IMG/VR virus record: IMGVR_UViG_3300045988_174472
Reading direction: 5' to 3' (one strand)
DNA from: a virus
Length of the DNA stretch: 39,665 bases
Positions within the stretch are counted from its first letter, which is position 1, and every line of letters starts with the position of its first letter. This document shows positions 227-37,274 of the stretch, one piece after another. The notes under the pieces were generated by a model. The model ran no database searches. It was not told the DNA's origin and saw nothing but the letters and a program-made list of their open reading frames with translations. A program made the position numbers and the translations under genes.

Positions 227-372
227 TTTAATATATATTTTTCTTATTATTTATAACTCTGCTTTTGAACTCCTTTTATGGTATAATGTTTTTTAGAGAA
301 ATTATAATCTAAGAGTGGGGTTTCATATATAGCCTTTGTTCCTGCGATAAGTAGGAAGGAGGTGTAAACTAT

Positions 373-528
373 ATGGAGCAAAAGAAGAAGATAATCATAA
401 CTGTTATAGTTATTCCAGTTATTATTGGTTTGGCTGTAAACTTTGTTTATGATAAAATAAAAAACCACTCTTACGGCAATAAGGGTGGCTTTCAAGTTGA
501 ATTCAACATAAAAGTTAAATTTGACTAA
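373..528 (+). CDS. Type I toxin-like small membrane peptide, copy 1 (51 aa)
   Basis: ATG at 373, TAA at 526-528; absent from the ORF track because it is under 60 aa. Translation MEQKKKIIITVIVIPVIIGLAVNFVYDKIKNHSYGNKGGFQVEFNIKVKFD has a hydrophobic helix and a Lys-rich tail. GGAGG at 358-362 and extended -10 TGGTATAAT at 279-287. Paralog of 1362..1526 and 4217..4396. Confidence 0.75.
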   Translation: MEQKKKIIITVIVIPVIIGLAVNFVYDKIKNHSYGNKGGFQVEFNIKVKFD

Positions 529-596
529 TATTATATTGTATATATAGAAATCACACTCTATTCCACTAGATTATAATTTCTCTTTTTTATTTCTAT
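457..596 (-). ncRNA. Candidate antisense antitoxin RNA, copy 1
   Basis: Minus-strand -10 TATAAT (plus-strand attata at 603-608), followed by the 5' module at 580->547. On the minus strand, hairpin 488-481/472-465 plus a T-run (plus-strand A-run 457-464) forms an intrinsic terminator inside the toxin ORF. The RNA is complementary to the 3' third of the toxin mRNA. Confidence 0.55.
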
Positions 597-679
597 GTTT
601 TTATTATACTACAAAATGCAGAAAAATACACAGTATATATTTTAATGTATTTTTTTCATATTATTATAATATATTTATA

Positions 680-859
680 CTATTCTTGAGTTTCCGATTT
701 AACAATTATTATTTTGCCATCTTCACAAACTACATCAATGAACTTATTTTCTTCATCAATTCCTAATTCTCTAACCATTGTTATTGGAAGAGTTAGCTTT
801 GCACTAACTCCACCATTACCACCTTTATTAAAATTTACTTTTAATCTTTTTTTACTCAT
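680..859 (-). CDS. AbrB/MazE/SpoVT-type looped-hinge-helix DNA-binding protein (59 aa)
   Basis: One residue short of the ORF-track cutoff. Translation MSKKRLKVNFNKGGNGGVSAKLTLPITMVRELGIDEENKFIDVVCEDGKIIIVKSETQE. The pattern G-rich loop, LTLP, (V/I)R.LGI is typical of SpoVT-AbrB domains. RBS is aggagat. Palindrome attgc-taat-gcaat lies upstream at about 907-925. Confidence 0.65.
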   Translation of the reverse strand: MSKKRLKVNFNKGGNGGVSAKLTLPITMVRELGIDEENKFIDVVCEDGKIIIVKSETQE

Positions 860-1140
860 TTTTAATCTCCTATAAAAATATTTGTAGAACTATATTTACT
901 ATTGCTAATGCAATTGATATTTTCACTAATTTATTTGTATCGTTCATAGTACATTGTGGTATAATGAAAGAAAACTTATCTAGTATAGTATTTACTATGC
1001 TAAGTATTTCTATCAAAAGAAGAATTCGAGCCGTCGCAAGTTCTGTGTTCTTCTTTTTTTCTTTTGTTTTCTTCTATTTGCCACTTTCTTCACCCTTCGT
1101 TTTTTAGTTTTCGGCATAGCTCTAATTATTTTATTTTGTT

Positions 1141-1204
1141 CATAAATTAATAAATGAACAAAATATACATTTATTAATGTTTTTTGTTCATTTATTAATT
1201 TATG
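1141..1204. repeat. Perfect 23-bp inverted repeat with 18-bp spacer
   Basis: cataaattaataaatgaacaaaa (1141-1163) is the exact reverse complement of ttttgttcatttattaatttatg (1182-1204). A nested alternative stem pairs 1133-1143 with 1154-1164. Confidence 0.9.
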
Positions 1205-1361
1205 AAATTTTGTTTTATTTATATAATAAAAACAAAGAAATGATTGAAGTATATAAAAACTTATATGGATATGATATAATAAATATAGGAATTTCAATTT
1301 ATAGAGTGGTGTTTCCATACTAAATATAAAGCCTACTTCTTAACGGAAGGAGGTGAGAAGT

Positions 1362-1526
1362 ATGGAACAAATGATAAATATTGTCATAGGTGCTATTTGC
1401 ACAATATGTCTTGGTCTATTGACTAACTACATATCCGACAAATTAAAAAGCCACTCTAGTTCTAGGAAAACTAAGAGTGGCGTGGAACTTGAAATAAAAA
1501 TCAAGTTCAAAATTACCAAAAATTAA
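1362..1526 (+). CDS. Type I toxin-like small membrane peptide, copy 2 (54 aa)
   Basis: Translation MEQMINIVIGAICTICLGLLTNYISDKLKSHSSSRKTKSGVELEIKIKFKITKN. GGAGG at 1349-1353, 8 nt before the ATG. Extended -10 TGATATAAT at 1272-1280. SD-sequestering hairpin cctacttc (1332-1339) / gaaggagg (1346-1353). Confidence 0.8.
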   Translation: MEQMINIVIGAICTICLGLLTNYISDKLKSHSSSRKTKSGVELEIKIKFKITKN

Positions 1527-1574
1527 AGTTTTGGAAACATCACTCTAGCGCAAATAGATTGAAGTTCCTTTTAT
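1442..1574 (-). ncRNA. Candidate antisense antitoxin RNA, copy 2
   Basis: Minus-strand -10 TATAAT (plus-strand attata at 1581-1586), with the 5' module at 1568->1533. Minus-strand terminator is gccactct (1450-1457) / agagtggc (1474-1481) followed by TTTTTAATT (plus-strand 1441-1449). It overlaps toxin codons about 28-54 and the 3' UTR. Confidence 0.6.
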
Positions 1575-1629
1575 ATTTATATTATACTACAAAATATATA
1601 AAAATAAACATTATATATTTAGTTATATT

Positions 1630-1944
1630 TTAATATATTTTTTTCTTATTATTTATAACTCTGCTTATAGTTGCTTTGCTCCAGCCTGTTTCATTCGATA
1701 TGTAACTATAACTTTTACCTTCATTTTTTAATTTTCTTATTTTATCTATATCCTTATCAGAAATTTGTTTCTGTTTACCTTGAAACTTTATGCTATTTTT
1801 TAAATTCTTATTTTCTATACTTAAAGAGTCGATGATCCTATTCTTTTCTTCTAACTGTTTCTCATAATATGAAACCATTTGATTATATTCTTTAATGTAT
1901 TTTCCAGTCCAATTATAATCATTTTTCTTTAGTTTCTTTAGCAA
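1630..1944 (-). CDS. Coiled-coil protein with C-terminal resolvase/Hin-type HTH (no recombinase catalytic domain)
   Basis: TTG start with RBS aaggtgg. C-terminus reads GKSYSYISNETGWSKATISRVI, an HTH_7/HTH_23-like motif. Its leader (1945-1973, minus strand) is a copy of the toxin 5' module. Confidence 0.6.
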   Translation of the reverse strand: MLKKLKKNDYNWTGKYIKEYNQMVSYYEKQLEEKNRIIDSLSIENKNLKNSIKFQGKQKQISDKDIDKIRKLKNEGKSYSYISNETGWSKATISRVINNKKKIY

Positions 1945-2111
1945 TGAAACACCACCTTTTATATTTTCAATTCTATAAGAAACTATTTCTATACAAGAAA
2001 CATCTAATCCTTTTGGTTAAGTTGTTTTTCTCTACTCGGATTTTTAGGTTTTCAAAAAAACATATATATGATATATTAAAAGGGACATTTTTTATACAAT
2101 TAATTTTTACA

Positions 2112-2150
2112 ATAAAAAGGCATATGATTAATCTCATATGCCTTTTTATT
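2112..2150. terminator. Intrinsic terminator (bidirectional)
   Basis: Stem ggcatatga (2119-2127) / tcatatgcc (2134-2142), with an A-run before and a T-run after. Confidence 0.6.
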
Positions 2151-2152
2151 AT

Positions 2153-2296
2153 CTAGTAAATTATTTCAAAGTTCCTACAATATATAATTGCATCTTCAGA
2201 TATACATAATACTTTACAATTATTCTTGCATTTTCTACAAGTATTAGATACAAAAAGATTATCTAATACTTCCTCAAAATATAACTGCTTCATCAT
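2153..2296 (-). CDS. Small Cys-rich protein (47 aa), function unknown
   Basis: Translation MMKQLYFEEVLDNLFVSNTCRKCKNNCKVLCISEDAIIYCRNFEIIY, with pattern CxxCxxxCxxxC...C. RBS aaggag. Lies directly downstream of 2306..2494. Confidence 0.45.
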   Translation of the reverse strand: MMKQLYFEEVLDNLFVSNTCRKCKNNCKVLCISEDAIIYCRNFEIIY

Positions 2297-2305
2297 AAAA
2301 ACTCC

Positions 2306-2494
2306 TTAATAAAATATATCATTTATATATTCAAGTAAATTTATAGATGCTTTACTCATTATATGTAATCCAAACATAACTATCATAATACCGATTAATA
2401 ACATCACTATTGATAATAAAATCCCTATCATAGTTCCTAATTTACCCTCTCTTTTTTCTAATCTTGCCATTGTATTTATGTATTTTAATATCAT
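2306..2494 (-). CDS. Small single-pass membrane protein (62 aa)
   Basis: The track ORF 2306..2566 is trimmed to the ATG at 2494, which follows RBS aaggagg. Translation MILKYINTMARLEKREGKLGTMIGILLSIVMLLIGIMIVMFGLHIMSKASINLLEYINDIFY contains one roughly 23-aa TM helix. Confidence 0.5.
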   Translation of the reverse strand: MILKYINTMARLEKREGKLGTMIGILLSIVMLLIGIMIVMFGLHIMSKASINLLEYINDIFY

Positions 2495-2652
2495 TGTATT
2501 TTCCTCCTTGAATTTTGCATCCAAGTGGTATATACTATTACTTGCGAGGGTAAAGGCATATTCCACTTTGGATGTGTCTTTTTTATTGTAATTATATTGT
2601 CTTAAGTCAGTAGAGTAGAGTGATACCTACTGACTTTTTACTTTTATTTTTA

Positions 2653-2901
2653 TTATTCGGGCATATCATCTTCCAGTTCATCTAACTTCTTAGTCAATGG
2701 ATCTATTTGTTTTTCAACAAACTTTTTATTATCATCAACGGTAATTTCAGATTTGCCTGATTGTCCTTTTAATCCTCTATATTCAGCTACTAAATATTCA
2801 ATAGCTGTGTTACGGCTTGATATGCCTTGACTTTTTTGTATATTCTCTATTTCATCCCATACAAAATCTTCCACATGTATTGTACTTGATTTTTTAGCCA
2901 A
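2653..2901 (-). CDS. parR: ParR-like ribbon-helix-helix centromere-binding adaptor
   Basis: 82-aa protein immediately downstream of the actin-like ATPase gene. The N-terminus (STIHVEDFVWDEIENI...SRNTAIEYLV) fits a strand-helix-helix, and the C-terminal tail is acidic. Confidence 0.6.
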   Translation of the reverse strand: MAKKSSTIHVEDFVWDEIENIQKSQGISSRNTAIEYLVAEYRGLKGQSGKSEITVDDNKKFVEKQIDPLTKKLDELEDDMPE

Positions 2902-2913
2902 ATTTTATACCTC

Positions 2914-3840
2914 CTAGAATTTTATCTTTGCAACTTCAAATAATCCTTTAGCAGTAGCTAATTGTGCATCTTCAACTCTTTTGAACTCTTCATCGAACTC
3001 TAAATTTATAGATGTTCCTCCTGCAACATATATATCCATTTCTGATTTATTTATCCAAATATCTTCTATTCTTTGAGCTAAATTTTCAGAACCTAATAAA
3101 TAAGCCTTTGCCTTTAAATCATCGTAGTCATTAGATGTATCTATTTCATTAACATCCTTCATTATATCGTTATTTCTTAATGAATCTTGCACAGTAGTTA
3201 ATAATGTTCTGTTACCAAATTCAATTGTATTTGACATCTTATCATTAAATGTAAACCCTTTGTCAAAATAAGATAATTCTGTAGTTCTAAATCCAACTGA
3301 AACTAATCCAACAGGTTTATCCTCATTTATTTTACCACCTATAGCATGTATTAAAGCTGCATCACCTTCTCTAAGTATAGAAATATTATTTATATAAACT
3401 TCCTTAGTTGATCCACTTATTTTATTTTTAACCTTTATAGTTTTACCTTTATATGTTTCTATAACTTCTTTTAAAACTGATTTTCTATAGTTTTTATAAG
3501 GTACTCCTAACATAACATCAACTTTATCTTTTACAGCTATCTCACTAAGTGCTGCTGCAAATAATACTTCTACAGTATGACTTGTTTTACTATCTCTTGA
3601 ATTTCTTACTGGTACTTGTGATTCTTTCTCAGCTAATAATCCAATAAAGTAATTTTCATTTTTGTATTCTATGTAGATAGGTTTCTCACTTTCTTTATTC
3701 ATGTATTCAGATAGATCTATATCTCTACCTTCTCCAATTACTGATTTAAAAACTGCAACATGTTCAATGTTATTTTCTTCAGAGTATGCCTTAACATAAC
3801 CTCTCCCAAAGTCTAGTCCAATTTTTTGAATATTTTCCAT
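2914..3840 (-). CDS. parM: Actin-like plasmid segregation ATPase (ParM/StbA/Alp family)
   Basis: N-terminal phosphate-1 motif IGLDFGRGYVKA. Later motifs VGLVSVGFRTTE and VAGGTS are typical of the actin/ParM fold. 308 aa, adjacent to a repeat array. Confidence 0.8.
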   Translation of the reverse strand: MENIQKIGLDFGRGYVKAYSEENNIEHVAVFKSVIGEGRDIDLSEYMNKESEKPIYIEYKNENYFIGLLAEKESQVPVRNSRDSKTSHTVEVLFAAALSEIAVKDKVDVMLGVPYKNYRKSVLKEVIETYKGKTIKVKNKISGSTKEVYINNISILREGDAALIHAIGGKINEDKPVGLVSVGFRTTELSYFDKGFTFNDKMSNTIEFGNRTLLTTVQDSLRNNDIMKDVNEIDTSNDYDDLKAKAYLLGSENLAQRIEDIWINKSEMDIYVAGGTSINLEFDEEFKRVEDAQLATAKGLFEVAKIKF

Positions 3841-3856
3841 TTTAATATATACCTCC

Positions 3857-4073
3857 GTTGATATGTTGTTGAGTTCTTGTTAACTCTAAAATAATTGTAT
3901 AATATTTTAGTTAAGATGTCAACAATACATTAACTATTTCTTTATCCTATCGTTGATATATTGTTGAGTTCTTGTTAATTCTAAAATAGTTACATAATAT
4001 TTTAATTAAGATATTAACAATATATCAACCATTTATACTTTTATCATTAATACATTGTTGAGTTCTTGTTAAT
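3857..4073. repeat. parC: parC-like centromere: three ~95-bp units with direct and inverted half-sites
   Basis: Core ttgttgagttcttgttaa occurs at 3866, 3961 and 4055. Inverted partners (gttaatgtattgttgacatcttaa-like) lie at about 3911-3935 and 4005-4030. The array is immediately upstream of parM. Confidence 0.7.
3894..3922 (-). promoter_or_regulatory. parMR promoter embedded in parC
   Basis: On the minus strand, TTGACA (3922-3917), a 17-nt spacer, then TACAAT (3899-3894), about 50 nt upstream of the parM ATG. Confidence 0.5.
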
Positions 4074-4167
4074 CATTTTTTTTAATTATTATAAAAAAAG
4101 ATATAGAAATTAGTCTATATCTCAAAAAATAAGTTTAAAACTCCATTTATTCTGCTATAATATAAAA

Positions 4168-4312
4168 TATAAAAGGAATTGAAATCTATTTAGCAGTAGA
4201 GTGATGTTCCTAAAAATTATTTTTTAGAATTTTTAAGATTAAAATTAAGTTCAAAAAATTTTAACTTAATTTTAATCTCTAAGCCACTCTCTCGCATAGA
4301 GTGGCTTTTTAA
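4168..4312 (+). ncRNA. Candidate antisense antitoxin RNA, copy 3
   Basis: Extended -10 TGCTATAAT at 4153-4161 and 5' module at 4175-4210. Terminator gccactct (4283-4290) / agagtggc (4298-4305) plus TTTTT at 4306-4310. Fully antisense to the 3' part of toxin 3. Confidence 0.6.
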
Positions 4313-4396
4313 TTTGTCAGATATATAATTAGTCGTTAGACCAAGACATATTGCACCAATAGCACTTATAATACCGACAATTATCTTTTGTTCCAT
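4217..4396 (-). CDS. Type I toxin-like small membrane peptide, copy 3 (59 aa)
   Basis: Translation MEQKIIVGIISAIGAICLGLTTNYISDKLKSHSMRESGLEIKIKLKFFELNFNLKNSKK. It shares ICLGL.TNYISDKLKSHS with copy 2. SD is ggaaggagg. Extended -10 TGATATAAT on the minus strand (plus-strand 4476-4484). Confidence 0.8.
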   Translation of the reverse strand: MEQKIIVGIISAIGAICLGLTTNYISDKLKSHSMRESGLEIKIKLKFFELNFNLKNSKK

Positions 4397-4540
4397 ACTT
4401 CCTCACCTCCTTCCTGCAAAGAAGTAGGTAAGTTCTTGAATGAAACACCACTCTATAGATTTCAATTCCTCTATTATTATATCATATACATATTGATAGT
4501 ACTATGTTTTATACTATTAACATAAAAAATAGAGTAGAGT

Positions 4541-36944: not shown

Positions 36945-36984
36945 AAAAAAGAAAGTGACCAAATATAAATCACTTTCTTTTTTG
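36945..36984 (+). terminator. Terminator of the late/lysis operon
   Basis: Stem gaaagtga / tcactttc, extended by A/T pairs, plus a T-run. Confidence 0.65.
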
Positions 36985-37024
36985 TACATATTCCAATTTT
37001 CAAAGCTACATGTTATATTTTTTA

Positions 37025-37130
37025 GGAATTACAATCTATAGAGTGGTATTTCAATACAATGTTGAAAGTAGATAAATTTTGAATAATAAAAATAAGAGTT
37101 GTATTTATTCATTTATACAACCCTTATTTT
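37025..37130 (+). ncRNA. Orphan RNA carrying the toxin-type 5' module but no toxin ORF
   Basis: Extended -10-like TGTTATATT at 37011-37019. Module ggaattacaatctatagagtggtatttca at 37025-37053. Only a 7-codon ORF follows. Hairpin 37093-37126 plus TTTT. Confidence 0.35.
37093..37130 (-). terminator. Terminator of the secreted-protein gene (hairpin shared with the orphan RNA)
   Basis: Stem taagagttgtat / atacaaccctta. The stem is better on the minus strand (G-U instead of A-C) and is followed there by a T-run. Confidence 0.6.
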
Positions 37131-37274
37131 TAGTTCACATTATATTATAGTAAATTAACTTATAAATGATAGTATAGAATTTGTTATAATTTTATTTATG
37201 TAATTATATAGCAACAATATGTATACTAACTTTTTAAAGTTAAATTACTATAATATTAGCAATATAAAAATATT

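Follow-up and report, generated by a model that had tools for sequence, protein, structure and literature searches.

Three convergent cassettes bracketed by a repeated module

The window analyzed here, 39,665 nucleotides (nt) of viral DNA (IMG/VR virus record IMGVR_UViG_3300045988_174472), contains a short repeated module with the consensus layout GGAAYTNNAATCTA-(insertion)-TAGAGTGRTGTTTCC, as seen when the claimed copies are extracted with their flanks. Each of three pairs of copies encloses a convergent cassette with an open reading frame (ORF) of 51–59 amino acids (aa) that has a hydrophobic N-terminal half and a charged tail. The original prediction, made from this sequence alone, had described the two copies as inverted repeats flanking each cassette, and this arrangement is indeed found. 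We describe the cassettes as predicted toxin–antitoxin systems of type I where the two copies provide the arms of a helix between the ends of the toxin mRNA. The features of the three cassettes are as follows.

Cassette 1
278–286 (+): extended −10 element TGGTATAAT of the toxin side, 10–11 nt upstream of the module
298–326 (+): toxin-side module, predicted 5′ end of the toxin-1 mRNA and 5′ arm of the 5′–3′ helix (profile E = 4.9e-5)
373–528 (+): predicted toxin 1 ORF, 51 aa (ORF list; NF047374, 25.3 bits)
455–491 (−): putative intrinsic terminator of antitoxin 1, antisense within the toxin-1 coding sequence (hairpin and U-run in the fold of 450–580 (−))
546–580 (−): antitoxin-side module, predicted antitoxin-1 5′ hairpin with the loop GUGGAA (profile match)
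581–590 (+): predicted terminal U-tract CTTTTTTATT of the toxin-1 mRNA (sequence)

Cassette 2
1272–1280 (+): extended −10 element TGATATAAT of the toxin side, 7 nt upstream of the module
1288–1317 (+): toxin-side module, whose nt 1–26 are the predicted 5′ arm of the 5′–3′ helix (profile match, fold)
1362–1526 (+): predicted toxin 2 ORF, 54 aa from the ATG at 1362 (ORF list; NF047374, 29.5 bits)
1441–1481 (−): putative intrinsic terminator of antitoxin 2 within the toxin-2 coding sequence, GCCACUCU...AGAGUGGC followed by U5 (fold of 1440–1568 (−))
1532–1568 (−): antitoxin-side module, predicted antitoxin-2 5′ hairpin with the loop UUUGCGC (profile match, fold)
1569–1578 (+): predicted U-tract of the toxin-2 mRNA

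Cassette 3
4153–4161 (+): extended −10 element TGCTATAAT of the antitoxin side
4165–4174, complement (−): predicted U-tract of the toxin-3 mRNA
4175–4211 (+): antitoxin-side module, predicted antitoxin-3 5′ hairpin, whose complement is the 3′ arm of the toxin-3 mRNA (profile match, folds)
4217–4396 (−): predicted toxin 3 ORF, 59 aa (ORF list; NF047374, 17.9 bits)
4281–4317 (+): putative intrinsic terminator of antitoxin 3 within the toxin-3 coding sequence (terminator scan: 10 pairs, then TTTAATTTGT; fold)
4441–4469 (−): toxin-side module, predicted 5′ end of the toxin-3 mRNA (profile match, fold)
4476–4484, complement (−): extended −10 element TGATATAAT of the toxin side, 6 nt upstream of the module

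A profile hidden Markov model built from seven module copies and searched over the whole window with filters off returned exactly seven copies, each with E ≤ 5e-5, and no other match with E ≤ 1. They comprise three toxin-side copies, three antitoxin-side copies, and one orphan. Nine copies had been listed before; seven of these were recovered, with coordinates within 1–2 nt, whereas those at 1945 and 2602 were not. Allowing up to three mismatches, the literal consensus occurs at two sites in the window and at none in 100 shuffles, so the module family is real, yet more diverged than a single consensus implies. The toxin-side copy holds a perfect TCTATAGA palindrome. The antitoxin-side copies carry an insertion of 6–7 nt, which had been noted previously and is evident in the alignment.

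On the antitoxin strand of each cassette, a −10 element is followed by the antitoxin-side copy and, ∼120–135 nt further on, by a terminator that lies inside the toxin coding sequence. Judged from these sequence signals, every cassette carries a convergent antisense RNA gene that overlaps the toxin gene in its 3′ part and is equipped with a promoter and a terminator of its own. At 465–488, 1450–1481, and 4281–4307, the antitoxin terminator stems coincide with the codons of conserved toxin residues, (N/S)HS and KSG (CCACTCT ... AGAGTGG), and the heptamer AGAGTGG is found both in the antitoxin terminator stem and in the core of the module. In folds of fixed-length transcripts, toxin nt 13–23 transiently pair with CCACUCU of the coding sequence before the 3′ end exists.

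The curated cut-off of the NCBIfam model NF047374 (CD_typeI_toxin) is 60 bits. All toxins of the window score below it (18–30 bits), whereas a toxin from a Clostridioides difficile phage reaches 88.5 bits. They are therefore best regarded as a diverged sister group, that is, as distant relatives and not as equivalogs. No match to Fst or to any other Pfam family was found for the window toxins.

Homologous cassettes

Homologs were gathered by toxin protein only, from 18 loci in species-representative genomes, 9 in IMG/VR, and 71 in metagenomes; because this search was anchored on the toxin, the set is independent of the module. It yielded 89 homologous cassettes, of which 55 are distinct and stem from at least six genera. 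Sources are Paraclostridium, Romboutsia, Terrisporobacter, Tepidibacter, Faecalimicrobium, a Tyzzerella metagenome-assembled genome, a C. difficile plasmid, and metagenomes. On this comparison of sequences, the elements form a family of convergent type I toxin–antitoxin cassettes of Peptostreptococcaceae phages, plasmids, and chromosomes that is related to the C. difficile toxins.

Both copies of the module are present in all 55 distinct cassettes, 255–310 nt apart, with the toxin-type copy ∼73 nt upstream of the ATG. The variable bases agree between the two copies of one cassette (TTGAA/TTGAA, CTTCA/CTTCA, TTATA/TTATA, CTACA/CTACA) and differ between cassettes. Within cassettes, the identity of the 5′ half is kept even at bases that are unpaired in the local hairpin.

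Four metagenomic cassettes (L048, L062, L068, and L075) appear chimeric, with promoter, module, and toxin N terminus from one cassette type and toxin C terminus and antitoxin module from another; they have 3–5 mismatches in the 5′–3′ helix described below.

The ends of the toxin mRNA form a conserved helix

Toxin mRNAs were folded at full length, beginning with the toxin-side copy and ending with the complement of the antitoxin-side copy. Each of the three folds pairs nt 1–26 with the 3′ end and leaves a bulge of ∼7 nt (z = −8.8 to −10.4). For cassette 2, such a pairing had already been proposed, and the minimum-free-energy fold of 1288–1572 reproduces it: nt 1–26 join the 3′ end with a 7-nt bulge, and the three differences between the arms are all accommodated as G-U pairs. 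The 3′ arm with the bulge is the complement of 1532–1568 (−). In the minimum-free-energy fold of cassette 1, the helix reaches to ∼295 and the module pairs with 546–584; the plus-strand complement of 546–580 (−) forms the 3′ arm, and the minus strand itself folds locally with −10.9 kcal/mol (z = −4.3).

Across the 55 cassettes, the helix joins the first ∼26 nt of the toxin mRNA to the last ∼36 nt, with a bulge of 6–9 nt. RNAalifold predicts it unprompted from the 55-sequence alignment. Of its alignment cells, 92.9% are paired, and 13 pairs have changed on both sides (123 such cells). None of 500 shuffles reaches any of five covariation measures, two conservative ones included, and sliding the partner by 1–3 columns as a control leaves 33–52% of cells paired. 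The complementarity between the toxin mRNA ends that had been noticed in the window is thus borne out both by the consensus fold and by compensatory covariation in the homologs. The duplex between the two arms has a median energy of −35.5 kcal/mol, and the helix forms in the full-length RNA with a median probability of 1.00 (minimum 0.64). In the three cassettes of the window, nt 1–26 are paired with a probability of ∼0.9–1.0 in the full-length RNA and become ∼0.5–0.6 unpaired when the 3′ arm is removed or blocked.

It had also been considered that each copy simply folds on itself. According to this explanation, the module provides a 5′ stabilizing stem-loop and a toxin terminator, and the complementarity of the ends is the by-product of a hairpin that is used twice. 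On the antitoxin side local folding holds: the copies of the window form hairpins whose loop is the insertion (−8 to −11 kcal/mol), and the median across the 55 cassettes is −10.8 kcal/mol. The U-tract that follows the toxin-sense complement, and the 83% of cells paired in the local 3′ hairpin across homologs, would also fit. The toxin-side copies, however, are weak, with −1.9 to −3.7 kcal/mol in the window (z = −0.7 to +0.3, no better than shuffles) and a median of −4.6 kcal/mol in the 55 cassettes, and the toxin-sense 3′ hairpin is weak as well (median −3.8 kcal/mol). Neither the toxin-sense local 3′ hairpin nor the toxin-side local 5′ hairpin rises above shuffles in the pair and pair-type measures. 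Moreover, the variable positions 2, 5, 7, 8, and 10 co-vary between the copies and not with their local partners, and the identity of the 5′ halves is kept where the bases are locally unpaired. We therefore consider it quite unlikely that local hairpins alone account for the module.

The helix contains many more G·U cells (84, in 15 columns) than A·C cells (11, in 5 columns) when it is read in the toxin sense. This bias indicates selection on the toxin-sense RNA and is unexpected for a DNA repeat or for pairing in antisense read-through. It bears on a further explanation in which the element acts at the level of DNA, either as operator half-sites, as the terminal inverted repeats of a small mobile cassette, or as copies maintained by gene conversion. 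The perfect palindrome of the toxin-side copy, the compact unit of ∼280 bp that the repeats bracket, and the recombination seen among cassettes (chimeras L048, L062, and L075) would each be compatible with it. But the variable insertion, 6–9 bp long, splits the palindrome of the antitoxin-side copy and is hard to fit to one dimeric DNA-binding site, and the 84:11 bias has no meaning in DNA. Conservation also runs on to the −10 boxes at fixed spacing outside both repeats; the unit thus extends past the repeats, whereas a reading akin to miniature inverted-repeat transposable elements would have it end there. Arms of ∼14 nt are too short for efficient homologous conversion, which counts against gene conversion. 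In an exact 16-mer scan of IMG/VR, the module was found only next to toxin genes (seven of nine matches; the other two are partial chance matches). We rejected the operator and mobile-element readings on these grounds, and a DNA-level role as a whole seems to us very improbable.

The insertion of the antitoxin-side copy is the apical loop of the antitoxin hairpin, and its complement is the bulge of the toxin helix; the loop is consequently exactly complementary to the bulge. The columns of this loop/bulge pair are the most variable of the module (1.3–1.8 bits, 25 distinct sequences of 6–9 nt), whereas the flanking CUCUA/UAGA is invariant. A U-turn (YUNR) was considered as a general feature of the antitoxin loop and dropped, as it occurs in only 20 of the 55 hairpins.

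Transcript starts and ends

Between the −10 element and the module, the window copies leave about 10, 7, 6, and 5 nt on the toxin side and at the orphan, and 22, 12, and 13 nt on the antitoxin side. The distances of 6–16 nt given originally are therefore roughly right. Five of the seven window copies have a TGn-extended −10 element. Among the homologs, the toxin-side gap is 6–10 nt in 54 of 55 cassettes (14 nt in the other), with TGn in 53 of 55; with this spacing, transcription is predicted to start on the first base of the module or no more than ∼3 nt away. The antitoxin-side gap to the nearest TATAAT is 12–14 nt in 29 cassettes, 22–25 nt in 25, and 19 nt in one. For the window copies, the antitoxin-side module probably begins 5–17 nt into the transcript, and the antitoxin RNA probably has a short A-rich leader ahead of its hairpin. 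The notion that the module marks transcript starts consequently applies to the toxin side, where the gaps put it at ∼+1, but not to the +1 of the antitoxin, where it lies only near the 5′ end.

At the opposite end, a U-tract (5–7 T within the next 8 nt) directly follows the 3′ arm in 54 of the 55 cassettes. Joined to this U-tract, the helix (or the weak local hairpin in its place) has the geometry of an intrinsic terminator for the toxin, and a transcript that ends there must contain the arm. The proposed lock had depended on a toxin mRNA that extends to the 3′ copy. The geometry provides for this, through the U-tract and through the mapped ends of C. difficile relatives (PMC5961336). In those relatives, the 3′ end of the toxin mRNA is the start site of the antitoxin (Maikova 2018, PMC5961336): the CD0956.2 transcript spans 1124042–1124339 and RCd10 starts at 1124339, and CD2907.1/RCd9 is arranged likewise (PMC5961336). 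In six C. difficile phage cassettes, the outer end of the repeat and the ATG are 79–87 nt apart, compared with published 5′ untranslated regions (UTRs) of 83 and 88 nt.

Translation signals are predicted to be closed locally

When the full-length RNAs of the three cassettes are folded with a partition function, the Shine-Dalgarno sequence and the AUG come out mostly paired. On removal of the last 45 nt, the unpaired probability of the AUG does not rise but falls, from 0.07, 0.14, and 0.27 to 0.00, 0.00, and 0.12; in the folding model, both signals also stay paired when the last 45 nt are blocked by the antitoxin. Because they are paired without the 3′ arm, the end-to-end helix is not what closes them. 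Instead, the 3′ edge of the toxin-side copy together with CAUAC (UUUCC-AUAC) pairs with GUAUGGAA around the start codon. This helix is 94.7% paired across homologs, includes one covarying pair (UA in 24, CG in 22), and in fixed-length folds forms once the AUG exists. The Shine-Dalgarno sequence lies inside a local hairpin of the 5′-UTR in the minimum-free-energy folds of all three cassettes. A first register of the Shine-Dalgarno/anti-Shine-Dalgarno columns was discarded, as only 44.9% of its cells are paired, and no covariation is claimed for it.

These folds bear on the function that had been suggested for the helix, a lock of the hok/fbi or AapA1 type. Such a lock would keep the full-length mRNA untranslatable and inaccessible to the antitoxin until slow trimming of the 3′ end refolds it into a translatable form. 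The 5′–3′ helix that it calls for is real and conserved, long-distance interactions between the ends are a recognized feature of several type I families (T1TAdb paper), and in vitro, the antitoxin captures only part of the “tightly folded” toxin mRNA of the C. difficile relatives (PMC7699646). In silico, however, Shine-Dalgarno sequence and AUG remain paired after removal of the last 45 nt in all three cassettes, the start region being held by local partners in the 5′-UTR, namely the conserved AUG helix and the Shine-Dalgarno hairpin. It is deletion of the 5′ module that opens the AUG in the model, which would point to processing at the 5′ end and not at the 3′ end. Loss of the 3′ arm would also remove the target of the antitoxin, unlike in hok and aapA1, where the antitoxin binds the 5′ region. 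With translation signals closed locally whether or not the 3′ arm is present, and an antitoxin that overlaps the 3′ end of the toxin, a lock of this type appears unlikely. What the original prediction had observed is largely right and its structural reading is right, but our modeling lends no support to the hok-like functional analogy.

A proposed two-part RNA element

The reading that we favor, with moderate confidence, takes the module as one of the two halves of a conserved RNA element. This element would serve in end-sealing, in termination, and in docking of the antitoxin with displacement of the 5′ end. The helix would hide both ends of the toxin mRNA from exonucleases, and together with the U-tract it would act as the toxin terminator. 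Translation would be blocked mainly by the local helices over the Shine-Dalgarno sequence and the AUG, not by the end-to-end helix, and the outcome would be a long-lived, tightly folded, untranslated toxin message. The hypervariable loop/bulge pair may provide a cassette-specific first contact with the antitoxin. The 5′ arm of the antitoxin is a same-sense copy of the toxin 5′ end but perfectly complementary to the toxin 3′ arm, so binding of the antitoxin is expected to displace the toxin 5′ end. Displacement would expose that end and create a long duplex, both of which favor decay. One short sequence would then have four roles, as toxin 5′ end, arm of the toxin terminator, antitoxin 5′ hairpin, and recognition loop.

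Data on the C. difficile relatives fit this reading. Their toxin mRNA has a half-life of ∼89 min, against ∼8 min for the antitoxin (Peltier 2020, PMC7699646). The authors call it “tightly folded” and find that only part of it binds the antitoxin; depletion of RNase III, J, or Y stabilizes it further (PMC7699646). A helix between the ends is consistent with the half-lives, with the folding, and with the effects of RNase depletion. It would offer a testable structural explanation for the properties of C. difficile-type systems, that is, for the long toxin half-life, for the “tightly folded” mRNA that binds antitoxin only in part, and for the coincidence of the toxin 3′ end with the antitoxin start.

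Several points weigh against the two-part element. Every functional step in it is inferred. A terminator hairpin whose upstream arm lies ∼250 nt away would be kinetically unusual. The data from rapid amplification of cDNA ends come from a diverged subfamily and were compared by geometry, not base by base, and the antitoxin starts are predicted from the −10 spacing alone, the module probably lying away from +1 on that side. Related sequences enter the covariation counts as if they were independent, even if none of the 500 shuffles reaches the two conservative measures either, and the G·U bias could stem in part from constraints on the antitoxin hairpin. An A·C mismatch is present in the Paraclostridium cassettes, and in the recombinants L048, L062, and L075 the helix has several mismatches. 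It is nonetheless predicted for all three (P = 0.79–0.82), so perfect pairing is not essential.

A more specific form of the model is tentative, and we see it as possible rather than probable. Here, the cassette would be a switch by molecular mimicry with a built-in address: the antitoxin unclasps the toxin mRNA, the loop/bulge pair confers cassette specificity, and the 5′–3′ helix with the U-tract terminates the transcript. The 5′ arm of the antitoxin would compete with the toxin 5′ end for the toxin 3′ arm. It would mask no ribosome site, but hand both ends of the mRNA to RNases, and the upstream arm of the terminator would be the transcript's own 5′ end. If this is true, the loop/bulge address may let at least three near-identical cassettes coexist on one replicon without cross-talk, and the variable loop would represent a natural set of orthogonal antisense pairs for the design of RNA devices.

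The orphan module, rejected sites, and neighboring genes

The seventh copy of the module stands apart from the three cassettes.

37025–37053 (+): orphan toxin-type module (profile match), with its own extended −10 element TGTTATATT at 37011–37019

Neither a toxin ORF nor a 3′ partner copy was found for it, and a terminator follows downstream at ∼37094–37133. Over 85 nt, the orphan promoter and module are 85% identical to those of an intact cassette on a related IMG/VR contig (L025). By its sequence, the orphan region at 36975–37135 looks like a cassette that has lost its toxin. Promoter, module, and terminator of this region could yield a small RNA of ∼110 nt. A sequence search with the orphan region gave no plasmid match.

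Of the two sites that the profile did not recover, 1945–1973 (−) has no match at E ≤ 1 and lacks the invariant TCTA..AGAGTG core. It has two exact blocks, GAATTGAAA and GTGGTGTTTCA, in common with the toxin-side copy of cassette 3, and is possibly a degenerate relic of a toxin-type module, not a functional copy. The site overlaps the ribosome-binding site and TTG start of a 104-aa helix-turn-helix ORF at 1630–1944 (−), which matches Pfam HTH_38; the putative relic provides the AAAGGTGGTG ribosome-binding site of this gene. The site at 2602–2627 (+), previously taken for a degenerate copy, sits within an unrelated terminator-like hairpin (AAGTCAGTAG...CTACTGACTT, then TTTTT). Two such hairpins follow each other on the plus strand, at 2552–2581 and ∼2603–2634, downstream of a promoter-like site at 2508–2536. 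The hairpins at 2552–2640 (+) may belong to a small RNA antisense to an 86-aa ORF at 2306–2566 (−).

The 16-mer scan of IMG/VR also located a more divergent toxin, MELKINIEDIISNVIAGYILFLITKNHSNASKSGIEFKLKSKHIDIKFKQ, at two loci (L112 and L113) that the search by protein pattern had missed. As this example illustrates, the module can serve as a finder of very short toxin genes that usually go unannotated.

Neighboring genes encode a Rep_3 initiator, an actin-like (ParM-type) partition protein, and an amidase/SPOR endolysin, which together identify the window as a phage-plasmid. Near-identical contigs exist in IMG/VR. The toxin–antitoxin cassettes flank the partition and replication region. Directly upstream of the ALP_N/ParM-type gene at 2914–3840 (−), three tandem repeats of ∼95 nt, each with TTGTTGAGTTCTTGTTAA, occupy 3829–4092, and an 82-aa ORF lies beside the gene at 2653–2901 (−). 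This arrangement resembles a parC-type centromere together with parM and parR. Just upstream of the cassette 2 toxin promoter, at 1139–1206, there is a perfect 25-nt inverted repeat (TTCATAAATTAATAAATGAACAAAA / TTTTGTTCATTTATTAATTTATGAA) with an 18-nt spacer.

A search of the whole window against Rfam at gathering thresholds gave no match. Megablast of the region found no match in phage records and only short matches in plasmids.

Comparison with known systems

The closest relatives are the C. difficile systems CD2517.1-RCd8, CD2907.1-RCd9, CD0956.2-RCd10, and CD0977.1-RCd11 (PMC5961336, PMC7699646), which likewise encode a small membrane toxin with a common core motif. In these medically relevant type I systems, as in the window, a convergent antisense RNA covers the 3′ part of the toxin gene and has its terminator inside the toxin coding sequence. 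The location on phages and plasmids, a toxin mRNA of ∼300 nt, and a 5′-UTR of ∼80 nt are also alike. The C. difficile phage cassettes share the 5′–3′ complementarity, and one of their toxins is a full member of NF047374 (88.5 bits), whereas the window toxins, with 18–30 bits, fall into a diverged sister group. A further difference lies in the terminal sequences, GCAAGAG.../...CTCTTGC in the C. difficile phage cassettes and GGAAYT... here. The C. difficile papers and reviews that we consulted, including PMC5961336 and PMC7699646, describe neither an end-to-end helix nor a shared 5′ module, although other papers may; they mention “highly structured” mRNAs and, as data not shown, possible loop–loop contacts.

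In hok/Sok (fbi) and in aapA1/IsoA1 of Helicobacter pylori, the full-length toxin mRNA, a stable and inert message, is likewise closed by conserved, covarying pairing of its extreme 5′ and 3′ ends. There, the long-range pairing enforces the occlusion of the translation signals, the mRNA becomes active once its 3′ end is trimmed, and it is then the 5′ region to which the antitoxin binds (T1TAdb paper). In the window element, by contrast, the translation signals are predicted to be closed locally and the antitoxin to target the 3′ arm itself. Its 3′ arm doubles as the template of the antitoxin 5′ hairpin, and the toxins are not homologous.

The par locus of pAD1 (fst RNA I/RNA II) is, like the cassettes described here, a plasmid-borne type I system of Gram-positive bacteria with convergent transcripts (PMC7472228). 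A helix sequesters the extreme 5′ end of the par toxin RNA and contributes to its greater stability, and antisense pairing is started by a hairpin-loop contact (PMC7472228). In the folding model, the window element similarly has an intramolecular helix over the extreme 5′ end of its toxin RNA. In contrast to the window element, par has direct repeats, so that its RNAs are complementary at their 5′ ends, as well as a shared bidirectional terminator and an unrelated toxin family. The repeats of the window element are inverted; its two RNAs accordingly share one 5′ sequence, and they end at separate terminators.

The predicted helix closes the mRNA as in these known systems, but the wiring differs in the local occlusion of the translation signals, the 3′-arm target, the shared arm, and the inverted repeats. 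End-to-end closure of a toxin mRNA, best known from the Gram-negative systems hok and aapA1, thus appears to have a differently wired counterpart on Gram-positive mobile elements.

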